Source: Candidatus Iainarchaeum sp.
GTDB taxonomy: Archaea; Iainarchaeota; Iainarchaeia; Iainarchaeales; JAZDEL01
Direction of reading: 5' to 3'
Assembly: GCA_043808785.1 (NCBI GenBank)
Contig: JAZDEL010000004.1
Coordinates: forward strand, 150,001 to 182,000
DNA length: 32,000 nucleotides
The notes beneath the pieces were generated by a model. That model saw only the letters and a program-made list of their open reading frames with translations, did not search any database and had not been told where the DNA came from. This document shows positions 2,107-26,230 of this stretch, piece after piece (the first letter of the stretch is position 1; each line of letters starts with the position of its first letter). A program made the position numbers and the translations under genes.

Positions 2107-2397
2107 CCCGCCTTAGCATAGTAGCCAATGCGTTCGGCTGTAGTTGAGCCTTTCTTTTGCAAAGAAAGCCTCGGGAAAGAAAGGAATTTTGCTTCGCAAA
2201 ATTCAATCAGAATTCCCGCGGCTGAAAGGAAAGGCGATGCGAACCGTTCGGAACGGTTGTGTGCCATTTTTGATGGCATGGCGCATTTGCGAGAGGAAGG
2301 AAGGCTAGTTCCATCGAGCGAGAGCGAAGATGGAACGCGGCACATCCGATCGCAAGCGGATACCGAAAGATCCCCGGTGCAACTCCGGGAGGCGGGA
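2107..2397 (+). tRNA. tRNA-Tyr(GUA) with a ~218-nt intron at the canonical 37/38 position (intron about 2144-2361)
   Basis: Hand fold of all four arms:
- Acceptor CCCGCCT/AGGCGGG (C1-G72, the archaeal Tyr identity pair), with A73.
- D-stem GCAT/ATGC.
- Anticodon stem TTCGG/CCGAA, loop CT-GTA-G|A.
- T-stem CCCGG/CCGGG.
A T-run follows the gene (2398-2412).
Caveat: the T-loop is TGCAACT (G at position 55) and the D-loop AGTAGCCA lacks GG. Confidence 0.7.
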
Positions 2398-6376: not shown

Positions 6377-6922
6377 ATGGGAAAGGCTTTTGCGTTTGGC
6401 GCGGTTCTTGCACTCGGGCTGATTGCGCTTTCATTCGGCTGCGCGCAGCAGCAGGGCAACGGGCAGATAGTTGGGGGGGATAAGGACGAGCACGGCTGCA
6501 TAGGTTCCGCGGGATACAGCTGGTGCGGGGCAAAGCAGGAATGCCTGCGCACATGGGAGGAAGAGTGCACTGCGCAGGGTTCGGGCACAGAAATAAATAA
6601 TTTCGAAGAGTGCGTTGCCGCGGGCAATCCCGTGATAGAAAGTTACCCGAGGAAGTGCAGCACGGGGGCGAAAACTTTCACGGAGGAGATCCCCGCACAG
6701 GCGCTGACTGAGGAAGAGGCGAGGGAAATTGCGCAGAACAGTTCGTGCATCGAGAACGGCGCGCTTAAGGAGAGCGCTTTCCGCAACGATAACACGAAAA
6801 CATGGTGGATTGATCTGGAGCCCGCGGAAGCGCAGGGTGGCTGCAGCCCCGCGTGCGTTGTGAGCGAGGAAAGCAAAACAGCGGAAACGAACTGGAGATG
6901 CACGGGGCTGGTGCCGGAATAG
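6377..6922 (+). CDS. secreted Cys-rich lipoprotein, unknown function
   Basis: Lipobox LSFGC. SD GGAAGGGGTG lies 5 nt before the ATG at 6377. Cys-rich motifs HGCIGSAGYSWCGAKQEC and FEECVAAGNPVIESYPRKC. Confidence 0.6.
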   Translation: MGKAFAFGAVLALGLIALSFGCAQQQGNGQIVGGDKDEHGCIGSAGYSWCGAKQECLRTWEEECTAQGSGTEINNFEECVAAGNPVIESYPRKCSTGAKTFTEEIPAQALTEEEAREIAQNSSCIENGALKESAFRNDNTKTWWIDLEPAEAQGGCSPACVVSEESKTAETNWRCTGLVPE

Positions 6923-6923
6923 G

Positions 6924-7793
6924 TCATGCTATTAACGCAAGCGCAACGCCTGCGGCAAGCGCGATTGCGGCGCCCGCATACTGGTGCGCGGATATTTTTT
7001 CCCGGTTTATGAGAACCCCGAGGAGAAGGCCGACAGTGGTGTAATTCACCATTATCGCCGCGACTATTGCGAGCTTGTTATCCACAAGCGCAACCGTGAA
7101 AAGCAGCCAGCCGATGGTGTCGAAGAAACCCGTCGCGAGCAGAAGGCGCGGGGAAGAGAAGAAGTTTTTCCTGAAACTGCCGAAGCCGCGGCGCAGAAAT
7201 ATTAGGAGGAGCGGGGCTGCGGCAAGCACGAGCCAGATGAACCAAACGCTGATTGCGGGGGAGGCCTGCCTTGCGCCGAGCGTCAGGAGATAGTTCATTA
7301 TTGCAAAGCTTGCAGCGCTCGCCACGGCAAGGAGGGCGCCTTTCTCAAGGTTTCCTGAAAAAATCGCCGCGGAAAGGGAGGAAACGGAAACAAGCAGCAC
7401 GCCCGCGAAAACAATTGCGATTGCGGCAAACTGCACAAGGGAAAGCGCCTCCCCGAGCAGGGTTGTGCTCAGGAGCACGGTAAGCGGCAGTTCAAGCGCG
7501 AAAACGACCATTACAATTGAAAGTTTTCCCTCCCCCAGCGCCCTGAAAGTAATCATGGAACTTGCAAGGGCAAACAGGCCGAGGAATAGGAGCAGCGCAA
7601 GGTTCTGCGGCACGAGAAGGAGGTGCATATCCTGCAGCGCGAGAGGGAGCAGCATTATAGTGCCCGTTACCGCTATGAAAGCGAGCGCGTGCACCCTGCC
7701 TACCCTGCGCACGCTGCGCTGTATAAGGAAGTCCCCGAGGCCCCATGCGAGCATGGCGCCGAATGCCGCGAGAATGCCGAAATCGAAAGCCAT
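6924..7793 (-). CDS. EamA/DMT-family transporter
   Basis: Ten predicted TM helices in two EamA-like halves. Start MAFDFGIL (7793) is preferred because the shared A/T box ATTAATAT (7842-7849) is too close to the ATG at 7838. Confidence 0.8.
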   Translation of the reverse strand: MAFDFGILAAFGAMLAWGLGDFLIQRSVRRVGRVHALAFIAVTGTIMLLPLALQDMHLLLVPQNLALLLFLGLFALASSMITFRALGEGKLSIVMVVFALELPLTVLLSTTLLGEALSLVQFAAIAIVFAGVLLVSVSSLSAAIFSGNLEKGALLAVASAASFAIMNYLLTLGARQASPAISVWFIWLVLAAAPLLLIFLRRGFGSFRKNFFSSPRLLLATGFFDTIGWLLFTVALVDNKLAIVAAIMVNYTTVGLLLGVLINREKISAHQYAGAAIALAAGVALALIA

Positions 7794-15123: not shown

Positions 15124-15258
15124 GCCCCGGTAGTCTAGCGGTTAGGATGCGGCCCTGTCGGAACTTTTGGGGGCGCGGGGTTCTTGAAACCCCGCTTCCG
15201 AAAAGTTCACAAAAGTTGCGGTGAGGCTGCGACTCGGGTTCGAATCCCGGCCGGGGCG
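15124..15258 (+). tRNA. tRNA-Asp(GUC) with a 63-nt intron at 37/38 (15161-15223)
   Basis: Hand fold of all four arms:
- Acceptor GCCCCGG/CCGGGGC, with G73.
- D-arm GTCT-AGCGGTTA-GGAT.
- Anticodon stem CGGCC/GGCTG, loop CT-GTC-G|A.
- T-arm TCGGG-TTCGAAT-CCCGG. Confidence 0.8.
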
Positions 15259-26041: not shown

Positions 26042-26115
26042 GCCCCCGTAGTATAGCCTGGACAGTACTCGGGCCTCCGGAGCCCGTGACCGGGGTTCAA
26101 ATCCCCGCGGGGGCG
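26042..26115 (+). tRNA. tRNA-Arg(CCG), intron-less
   Basis: GCCCCCG-TA-GTAT-AGCCTGGACA-GTAC-T-CGGGC-CTCCGGA-GCCCG-TGAC-CGGGG-TTCAAAT-CCCCG-CGGGGGC-G. AATAAAAACC lies about 27 nt upstream. Confidence 0.95.
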
Positions 26116-26230
26116 CTTCGGAAAAAACAAAACAAAAAACGAACCGACGGTTCGCCGGGTTTTTGGGTTTTGGTTTTTCGGGTTTTGTTTTTCGGATTTA
26201 TTTTTGGTTTTGCCGCTTGTTTTTTTGCCT
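26116..26230 (+). terminator. hairpin plus multiple G-punctuated T-tracts downstream of tRNA-Arg
   Basis: GAACC-GAC-GGTTC hairpin (26141-53), flanked by A-rich (26121-40) and T-rich (26160-26228) runs. T5-T7 tracts are archaeal termination signals. Confidence 0.45.

Follow-up and report, generated by a model that had tools for sequence, protein, structure and literature searches.

The stretch of DNA analysed here (hereafter the window) comprises 32,000 nt of contig JAZDEL010000004.1 from the Candidatus Iainarchaeum sp. assembly GCA_043808785.1 (positions 150,001 to 182,000, forward strand), and it contains a tRNA-Tyr gene interrupted by a long intron. With introns allowed, ARAGORN called tRNA-Tyr(gta) at 2107-2397 on the plus strand, the strand of all features described below unless stated otherwise, with a 218-nt intron after position 37. 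The 5' exon (2107-2143, tRNA positions 1-37) holds the acceptor strand CCCGCCU, the D arm, the anticodon-stem strand UUCGG and the loop nucleotides C32 U33 G34 U35 A36 G37. The 3' exon (2362-2397, positions 38-73) holds A38, CCGAA, the variable loop AGAUC, the T arm, the acceptor strand AGGCGGG and A73. All feature coordinates were verified against the sequence. When the two exons were joined (73 nt), ARAGORN named the product tRNA-Tyr, and the minimum-free-energy (MFE) fold of this spliced RNA was a clean 7/4/5/5 cloverleaf with a 7-nt anticodon loop. The precursor folded more stably than shuffled sequence (z = -5.3), none of 200 shuffles being equally stable. Archaeal and eukaryal tyrosyl-tRNA synthetases recognize the C1-G72 pair, A73 and the GUA anticodon, and these elements are found at C2107-G2396, A2397 and 2140-2142, respectively. 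A preliminary description of the locus had claimed perfect stems, a perfect anticodon loop and archaeal Tyr identity, and our analysis agrees with it on each of these points.

In textbooks, G18 and pseudouridine 55 count as nearly invariant in the elongator tRNAs of the cytoplasm. The window gene keeps all the near-universal tertiary nucleotides (U8, A14, G19, A21, U54, C56, A58 and G53-C61) with two exceptions, G18, which is replaced by A (2123), and U55, which is replaced by G (2379). The D-loop (2120-2127; AGTAGCCA / AGUAGCCA) thus reads A14 G15 U16 A18 G19 C20 C20a A21, with G19 at 2124, and differs by a single G to A change from the canonical tRNA-Tyr D-loop AGTGGCCA of a comparison locus (L051). 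The T-loop UGCAACU (2378-2384) reads U54 G55 C56 A57 A58 C59 U60, and the G at position 55 had been correctly noted in the preliminary description. The same description placed GC where G18G19 is expected, which does not hold: the gene has A18 G19, and both G19 and C56 are kept. The D-loop numbering was off by one because the loop had been counted straight along, and the change was misplaced at 'C19'.

For comparison, 162 loci (L001-L162) were collected. A pattern scan with the T-loop and acceptor (18 specified bases) in one genome per species matched five 'Candidatus Iainarchaeum archaeon' metagenome-assembled genomes (MAGs) and four further archaeal MAGs; about 30 bacterial sequences matched too, a number in the range estimated for chance at 18 specified bases. 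A metagenome scan, in which the T stem and the acceptor were fixed and the T-loop was left free, yielded at least 120 complete tRNA-Tyr genes. Among the matches listed, 15 carried G55 and 105 carried U55 or C55. The G55 set contains 15 complete and four partial genes, made up of the nine matches in Iainarchaeum and other archaeal MAGs and, for the rest, of metagenome contigs; the stretch taken from CP064981.1 (L019) ends within the intron.

Position 18 followed position 55 in every case. Among the complete tRNA-Tyr genes listed, G55 was accompanied by A18, in an AG D-loop, in 15/15, and U55 or C55 by G18, in a GG D-loop, in 105/105. The G55 T-loops of the relatives read TGCAACT, TGCAAAT or TGCAGAT, and TGCAAGT in one partial sequence. 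Among 215 tRNAs predicted on the collected loci, TGC-type T-loops were paired with a non-GG D-loop in 17 of 17 cases and never with GG. A co-varied elbow contact had been suspected in the preliminary description, and the fact that A18 travels with G55 in every G55 orthologue bears this out, with the change lying at position 18 and not at position 19. The combination also occurs in a tRNA-Thr(GGU) gene (L004, 4793-4865), whose D-loop AGCUAGUA (A18 G19) and T-loop UGCAAAU (G55) belong to a tRNA scoring 69.4 bits against RF00005. Its counterpart in L003 (2999-3070) has a canonical elbow, and we read the L004 gene, from its sequence, as a second and independent occurrence of A18/G55 in the lineage.

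The preliminary description had also considered that the unusual elbow might mark a decaying gene. On this reading, the elbow mutations and the bloated intron would be signs that the locus has ceased to yield a functional tRNA. G18 and U55 are indeed among the most conserved tRNA nucleotides, and the window intron is about seven times as long as the median of 31 nt (range 14-49 nt) in the 105 U55 or C55 tRNA-Tyr genes listed. The window copy was, moreover, missed both by ARAGORN with default settings and by the Rfam tRNA model, and the default runs on the window reported only a tRNA-Arg (26042-26116) and an intron-containing tRNA (15124-15258). This silence is likely due to the 218-nt insert, since G55 orthologues with introns of 39-66 nt score 46.1-50.8 bits against RF00005, whose gathering threshold is 29 bits. 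The pattern of conservation argues against decay. Both elbow changes and identical acceptor and T arms are present in 15/15 complete G55 genes, despite flanking coding DNA that is only 67-80% identical to the window where alignable, and the last 31 nt are identical in 13/13 TGCAACT sequences. The variation that exists in the stems of these 15 genes is all compensatory, in the D stem (GCAU/AUGC, GCUU/AAGC, GUUU/AAAC, GUAU/AUAC and GCUC/GAGC) as in the anticodon stem (UUCGG/CCGAA, UCCGG/CCGGA, CUCGG/CCGAG and CCUGG/CUAGG). In L021, an Iainarchaeum MAG, both exons have the same sequence as those of the window, and the coding flanks are 68-73% identical, a similarity that places the window in an Iainarchaeota (DPANN) genome. 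Together with the perfect cloverleaf of the spliced RNA and a conserved neighbouring gene encoding a PAP2 protein, these results show that the window copy is a genuine, conserved, intron-containing tRNA-Tyr gene; the pseudogene reading is strongly disfavoured and effectively excluded.

The nature of the new elbow is suggested by T-loops found outside tRNA. These follow the pattern YGNRA, are mostly UGNAA, with UGHAA functionally favoured, and extend to a full 7-nt consensus (YGNRA)NY in riboswitches for flavin mononucleotide (FMN) and for cobalamin; the receptor base that intercalates between T-loop positions 4 and 5 is 'almost exclusively' adenosine, and the T-loops of tRNAs depart from this by having U at position 2 (bioRxiv 10.1101/2022.12.26.521914). 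The window loop UGCAA-CU fits both (YGNRA)NY and UGHAA, its positions 1 and 5 being Y and A, and the variants of its relatives are UGCAA-AU, UGCAA-GU and UGCAG-AU. An A stands at the position of G18 in the sequences of all 15 G55 tRNA-Tyr genes and of the one tRNA-Thr. In an elbow of the tRNA type, G18 is inserted between positions 57 and 58 and bonded to pseudouridine 55. By analogy, we infer a swap between two known T-loop types: the elbow would have switched from the tRNA type (UUCRA with G18) to the general riboswitch type (UGNRA with an intercalated adenosine), A18 would insert between T-loop positions 4 and 5, and the retained C56:G19 pair would leave unchanged the outer stacking face used by RNase P and the ribosome. 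The likeness to the FMN and cobalamin riboswitch T-loops thus extends to the UGCAA-CU consensus, to a partner adenosine at the intercalator position and to a position 3 that is free for a long-range pair (bioRxiv 10.1101/2022.12.26.521914). The differences are that the window module, known from sequence, sits in a tRNA and that its position 3, C56, pairs with G19, which is not required in riboswitches. In archaea, pseudouridine 55 is made by Pus10 (PMC7337903). Having G55, the window tRNA-Tyr therefore cannot carry pseudouridine 55.

The elbow could also have been rebuilt in another way, with G55 forming a Watson-Crick or wobble pair with the pyrimidine at position 20, directly after G19, so that the G19:C56 contact would be extended to a two-pair mini-helix. 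This model is close to the idea of a co-varied contact involving 'GC' in the preliminary description, and the nucleotide after G19 is C or U, both able to pair with G, in 15/15 G55 genes. However, a pyrimidine is also the commonest state of position 20 in canonical tRNA-Tyr genes, and the model leaves unexplained the strict association of A18 with G55 and of G18 with the other genes. In a T-loop, the backbone turns sharply from position 2 to position 3, and nucleotides 55 and 56 are for this reason not stacked for pairing with two consecutive D-loop bases. We therefore consider a Y20:G55 pair unlikely and retain the exchange of T-loop types as the working model.

To our knowledge, the exceptions to G18 and pseudouridine 55 are specialised tRNAs, such as tRNA-Pyl and the cell-wall tRNA-Gly, or mitochondrial tRNAs. 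tRNA-Pyl is translationally active without G18G19 and without T54-Psi55-C56, and its Desulfitobacterium hafniense form has G55, A57, A58, C59 and U60 (PMC1851642). The tRNA-Pyl of D. hafniense and Methanosarcina nevertheless differs from the window tRNA-Tyr: it lacks G19:C56, its D-loop has 5 nt, its anticodon stem 6 bp and its variable loop 3 nt, and it decodes a stop codon, whereas the window tRNA serves a sense codon and is canonical in every other respect. The non-proteinogenic tRNA-Gly of Staphylococcus also has an altered D/T-loop elbow, for instance U19 in place of G19 (PMC4574755). These tRNAs are extra isoacceptors that serve the cell wall beside canonical genes; in contrast, the window gene keeps G19:C56 and no canonical partner was seen on the contigs.

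The frequent specialisation of tRNAs with non-standard elbows nonetheless raises the question of whether a canonical copy elsewhere in the genome decodes tyrosine codons and the window copy has another role, as does the staphylococcal cell-wall tRNA-Gly. A canonical-elbow tRNA-Tyr with the stems of the window gene does exist in some organism: in L118, the D stem and the anticodon stem are the same as in the window, the intron measures 258 nt, and the elbow is canonical (AGTGGCTA / TTCAAGT). But the L118 contig is AT-rich with an unrelated gene neighbourhood, and its gene looks like another organism's orthologue and not like a paralogue. A second tRNA-Tyr was seen neither in the window nor on the related contigs, about 20 in number; this search covered contig stretches, which leaves some room for a specialised copy. 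In DPANN archaea, a genome of some 1 Mb commonly has a single gene for each anticodon, and the window copy keeps the anticodon loop, C1-G72 and A73. Taken together, these observations make a specialised or secondary tRNA improbable.

On the same AT-rich contig, an archaeal RNase P RNA (L118, 5742-5970; RF00373, 109.5 bits, 229 nt against a 288-position model) adjoins the canonical-elbow tRNA-Tyr. Other metagenome contigs from archaea contain T-loops with C55 (UCCGAAU and UCCAAAU), for the most part beside a D-loop with the normal GG. They occur in the tRNA-Tyr of L073, L093, L113, L128 and L138 and in the tRNA-Thr(UGU) of L053, L061, L088, L099, L122 and L137, and in L122 C55 is combined with an AG D-loop (AGCCCAGUU). 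In uncultured archaea, position 55 seems to vary more than is stated in textbooks; for the C55 T-loops, C-to-U editing is one possibility.

The intron (2144-2361; ARAGORN notation i(38,218)) lies at the canonical 37/38 site. A length of about 218 nt at this site had been claimed previously and is confirmed by the ARAGORN call. Orthologues have introns at the same site (L001-L004, L020, L021, L026, L027, L038, L039 and others). At its 3' end, the splice motif is of the textbook kind. GCGG (2356-2359) pairs with C32-U35, CUGU (2138-2141), to form a 4-bp central helix, and the 3-nt bulge A2360 U2361 | A2362 with the 3' splice site sits between this helix and the anticodon-stem strand CCGAA, the 3' half of the motif spanning 2356-2362. 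The central helix CUGU/RCRG is fully paired (4/4) in 11 of 15 G55 orthologues, the window gene among them, and has 3/4 pairs in the other four. When the cloverleaf and the central helix are both imposed as constraints, the fold is only 1.1 kcal/mol less favourable than the free MFE. At the 5' splice site, we found no canonical 3-nt bulge with an inner helix, only one U-A pair being possible between the intron ends, and in the constrained fold this site falls where the central helix and the three domains of the intron meet. The bulge-helix-bulge (BHB) motif is therefore relaxed. DPANN endonucleases with an extra loop have been associated with disrupted tRNA genes (PMC5829648), and in the mechanism that we propose the archaeal splicing endonuclease would cut the relaxed motif, after which RtcB-type ligation would join the exons. 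The gene thus shares with canonical archaeal tRNA-Tyr(GUA) a BHB at 37/38, C1-G72, A73, the acceptor and T stems, the CUGUAG loop and an intron 3' end that pairs with C32-U35. It differs by A18/G55 in place of a GG D-loop and a UUC T-loop, by a 218-nt three-domain intron in place of a short one, and by the junction at the 5' site.

The three domains were defined by constrained folding, with RNAalifold also used for the first. In domain 1 (2148-2235), the pyrimidine tract GCCUUUCUUUU (2148-2158) pairs locally with AAAGAAAG (2161-2168) or, over a long range, with AAAGGAAAGGC (2225-2235), and can pair with any of three purine tracts. The domain encloses the hairpin GAAUUUUGC-UUC-GCAAAAUUC (2184-2204), in which L001 has a U-A to C-G compensatory change. 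Domain 1 of L021 is a simple hairpin, CUCUUUUC-UUCG-GGAAAGGG, so that in the window, L001 and L002 about 70 nt are inserted into the loop of this hairpin. Domain 2 (2236-2287) is a three-way junction, GAUGCG / AACCGUU-CGG-AACGGUU / GUGCCAU-loop-AUGGCAU / CGCAUU, that is nearly invariant in the window, L001, L002 and L021; its changes are a compensatory U-A to C-G in L002 and a G.U to G-C in L021. Domain 3 (2288-2354) has a closing helix UGCGA (2288-2292)/UCGCA (2350-2354) that adjoins the central helix and reads GCUCGG/CCGGGC in L001. It continues with a purine-rich linker and a hairpin (2308-2336) whose internal loop is a tandem G.A (GA/GAA) and whose cap is GC-GAGA-GC. GA/GA(A) hairpins with different stems are present in L001, L021, L104 and L129. 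Most of the hairpins listed in the preliminary description exist as given there (CTTTCTTT/AAAGAAAG, GAATTTTGC/GCAAAATTC, TGCCAT/ATGGCA and TTCCATC/GATGGAA), and the remaining one, given as 'AACCGTTC/GAACGGTT', is really AACCGTT/AACGGTT, a 7-bp stem with a CGG loop.

An RNAalifold alignment of four sequences (the window, L001, L002 and L021) predicted nine pairs with double compensatory changes. The 3' 134 nt of the intron (2228-2361) and the 3' exon are 87% identical to L021, compared with 68-73% for the coding flanks. Beyond these close relatives, the intron varies widely. The G55 introns measure 39-277 nt in the complete genes (median 114 nt), and an intron is present at 37/38 in 120/120 complete tRNA-Tyr genes among the matches listed. 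A partial sequence at a contig end (L124), a G55-type tRNA-Tyr with the T-loop UGCAAGU, has no intron at all (...GTCCGGCTGTAGACCGGAAG...), which means that at least one relative can do without it. A comparison of orthologous loci for intron conservation and for D/T-loop covariation had been proposed in the preliminary description; introns at the same site and covarying loops were found, but the intron is not fixed, ranging from 0 to 277 nt. It is also mosaic. The 5' 148 nt of the L001 intron are 93% identical to the window, and its 3' end is of the type seen in the distant L003 and L038 (GCCGGGCGUGACGGCA). The 8-bp stem GUUCCAUC/GAUGGAAC of the window hairpin 2308-2336 recurs, identical, in the distant L038. 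These sequences suggest that intron modules may have been exchanged between lineages, and recombination between identical exons is a plausible cause of the mosaicism.

Such fluidity raises the question of whether the intron is a neutral filler, in which hairpins are gained by insertion or duplication and swapped by recombination between identical exons, and of which the splice motif alone matters. The length range down to 0 nt in L124, the unrelated sequences of distant orthologues and the mosaic modules (the hybrid L001 intron and the stem shared by L038 and the window) are all as expected under this explanation, as is the lack of any known RNA family and of C/D or H/ACA boxes in the intron. 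On the other hand, the core of the three-way junction is almost invariant in four genomes and more conserved than the adjacent coding DNA, and several stems show compensatory double changes that would not be expected without constraint. Neutral filler is thus a real possibility, although we doubt that it is the whole explanation. Judging from the sequences, we regard the intron as a fast-evolving, modular and mosaic structured RNA that is typical of its lineage and whose structural constraint appears real in close relatives. Most likely it serves structurally, either within the precursor or once excised. In L038 (6760-6945) and L039 (1663-1841), the tRNA-Thr(UGU) also has an intron of more than 100 nt, as judged by sequence length; the presence of long introns in tRNA genes is characteristic of these contigs.

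Several other identities were considered for the intron. The statement in the preliminary description that it holds no credible open reading frame (ORF) stands, and coding potential was rejected: the ORFs that overlap the gene (2128-2424 on the plus strand and 1995-2345 on the minus strand) have no Pfam match, and the intron lengths of orthologues differ by non-multiples of 3, so that no reading frame is conserved. The stop-free frames of the minus strand are due to the purine-rich composition. A permissive Rfam scan of 1950-2550 gave two chance-level matches to unrelated families and no group I intron, ribozyme or small-RNA family, and an Rfam scan of the window at gathering thresholds likewise gave no family for the intron. 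A group I intron was set aside on the absence of a covariance-model match, the archaeal host and the presence of a protein-spliced motif. The tRNA-Trp intron of Haloferax volcanii carries a C/D box guide RNA. It likewise lies at 37/38, is structured, has a length of about 100 nt or more and may be functional in itself, before or after excision. The introns of the window type differ from it by the absence of a conserved C, D or ACA box and of an Rfam match. No exact C box (RUGAUGA) was found in any orthologous intron, and neither CUGA nor ACA is conserved (L001 has no CUGA and L021 has ACCA); a C/D box or H/ACA guide, for instance for pseudouridine 35 of tRNA-Tyr, was thus rejected.

Two local motifs were discarded as well. 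A K-turn in hairpin 2308-2336 is not supported, the GAA-GA of the window not being kept in L021, L001 and L129, which by manual reading share the tandem G.A loop only. A T-arm mimic in the core hairpin, AACCG-UUCGGAA-CGGUU, was rejected because L002 has a compensatory change that speaks for a stem of 7 bp topped by a 3-nt loop. When the intron was compared by blastn with the window and with all 162 loci, matches were confined to tRNA-Tyr introns, and a repeated or mobile element was rejected since no intron copy occurs elsewhere in these sequences. A viral origin was dismissed after neither the 3' exon nor the intron core found a match in IMG/VR.

Considering all these data, we think it probable that the locus encodes an expressed tRNA-Tyr(GUA) of the Iainarchaeota (DPANN), with a swapped elbow and a structured BHB intron; this is the reading that the sequences favour. 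Several points weigh against it. The link between A18 and G55 may rest on two evolutionary events, one in tRNA-Tyr and one in tRNA-Thr, so that the table of 15:0 and 0:105 greatly overstates the statistical independence of its entries. The three-dimensional model, with A18 intercalated and G55 as the riboswitch position 2, is an analogy drawn from a sequence consensus. Expression, splicing and modification of the window tRNA-Tyr are all processes that we infer, and a second, canonical tRNA-Tyr gene elsewhere in the genome is possible. The 5' splice site does not lie in a canonical 3-nt bulge, and cleavage would depend on an endonuclease of relaxed specificity. The conservation of the intron structure, as judged from sequence, rests on four close relatives, and the distant orthologues with unrelated or no intron sequence argue against an essential function of the intron.

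In the literature searched, with DPANN tRNA T-loops among the subjects, we found no earlier description of an A18/G55 tRNA elbow or of peculiarities of Iainarchaeota tRNAs. The elbow deserves attention as A18/G55 is kept across every related contig found, in an otherwise ordinary sense-codon tRNA, and equals the combination of riboswitch T-loops. If this is confirmed, the contacts of the tRNA-type and riboswitch-type T-loops would be interchangeable in a living translation system. The gene would also provide a natural double-mutant cycle for elbow folding, for recognition by RNase P and the ribosome, and for the need for pseudouridine 55. In practice, tRNA finders and completeness checks tuned to GG/TPsiC and to short introns might miss DPANN tRNAs, and the default runs of both tools did miss the window gene. 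Two bolder proposals, which we advance tentatively and consider rather unlikely, go further. In the first, the A18/G55 elbow would be an alternative that is fully functional in an essential, single-copy sense-codon tRNA and may be spreading to other tRNAs such as tRNA-Thr(GGU); the lineage would then be expected to show a specific change in what reads or modifies the elbow, such as a relaxed or lost requirement for the position-55 pseudouridine synthase. In the second, the conserved three-way junction at the core of the intron would form a lineage-specific non-coding RNA, stable and probably circular, that has a function in its own right. The intron is a further example, from a very small genome, of a tRNA intron that is long and modular and recombines.

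The flanks of the gene contain putative expression signals. An AT-rich, TATA-like box, TTAATATATTTTAG (1995-2008), lies about 100 nt 5' of tRNA position +1 and is a putative archaeal promoter; the L001 orthologue has a comparable upstream stretch, TTTAGC(G/A)GGGTAGGTTATTAGGAAGG. The promoter would start transcription of a leader that ends in a hairpin, GCACGG-AUCCUU-CCGUGC (6 bp, 2089-2106). This predicted hairpin ends exactly at the tRNA 5' end, which is the RNase P cleavage site, where RNase P would trim the precursor. At the same place, L021 has ACGCGG-AUCCCU-CCGCGU, with two base pairs changed on both sides, and the hairpin is not present in L001. It might influence RNase P processing. Directly after A73, an oligo-T tract, TTTTCTTATTTTTTCC (2398-2413), is a likely archaeal terminator, and the orthologues are also trailed by T-rich tails.

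Upstream of the tRNA-Tyr lies the PAP2 gene (1130-1993), with homologues at 82%, 58% and 42% identity. On the contigs of all three homologues, a tRNA-Tyr with the T-loop TGCAACT and a D-loop beginning AGTAG.. is found directly downstream, and PAP2 adjoins tRNA-Tyr in the window, L001, L002 and L003. In L004, L038 and L039, the ORF upstream of tRNA-Tyr has a similar C-terminal sequence, as read by eye. The gene content of the window is one of transport and housekeeping (MgtC, DUF2666, PAP2, PstSCAB and others). It includes no integrase or mobile-element gene, and the possibility that the locus is an integration-site relic was rejected on this basis. Downstream, a 55-aa ORF on the minus strand (2421-2588) converges on the 3' end of the tRNA-Tyr; its match to PrlF/MazE-like antitoxins (30.8 bits) is just below the Pfam cut-off, and no obvious partner toxin gene lies near it.

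Finally, some of the tRNA predictions obtained with long introns are tool artefacts. ARAGORN mislabels tRNA-Tyr as tRNA-Asp or tRNA-Asn in L001 (1568-1862), L118 (5303-5635) and L162 (258-382) because it picks a different intron boundary, and with a very large intron limit it reports a spurious tRNA-Arg with a 1174-nt intron in the window (6389-7644). The intron-containing tRNA at 15124-15258 of the window is a tRNA-Asp(GUC); its elbow is canonical, and its intron, which forms a hairpin, measures 63-66 nt.

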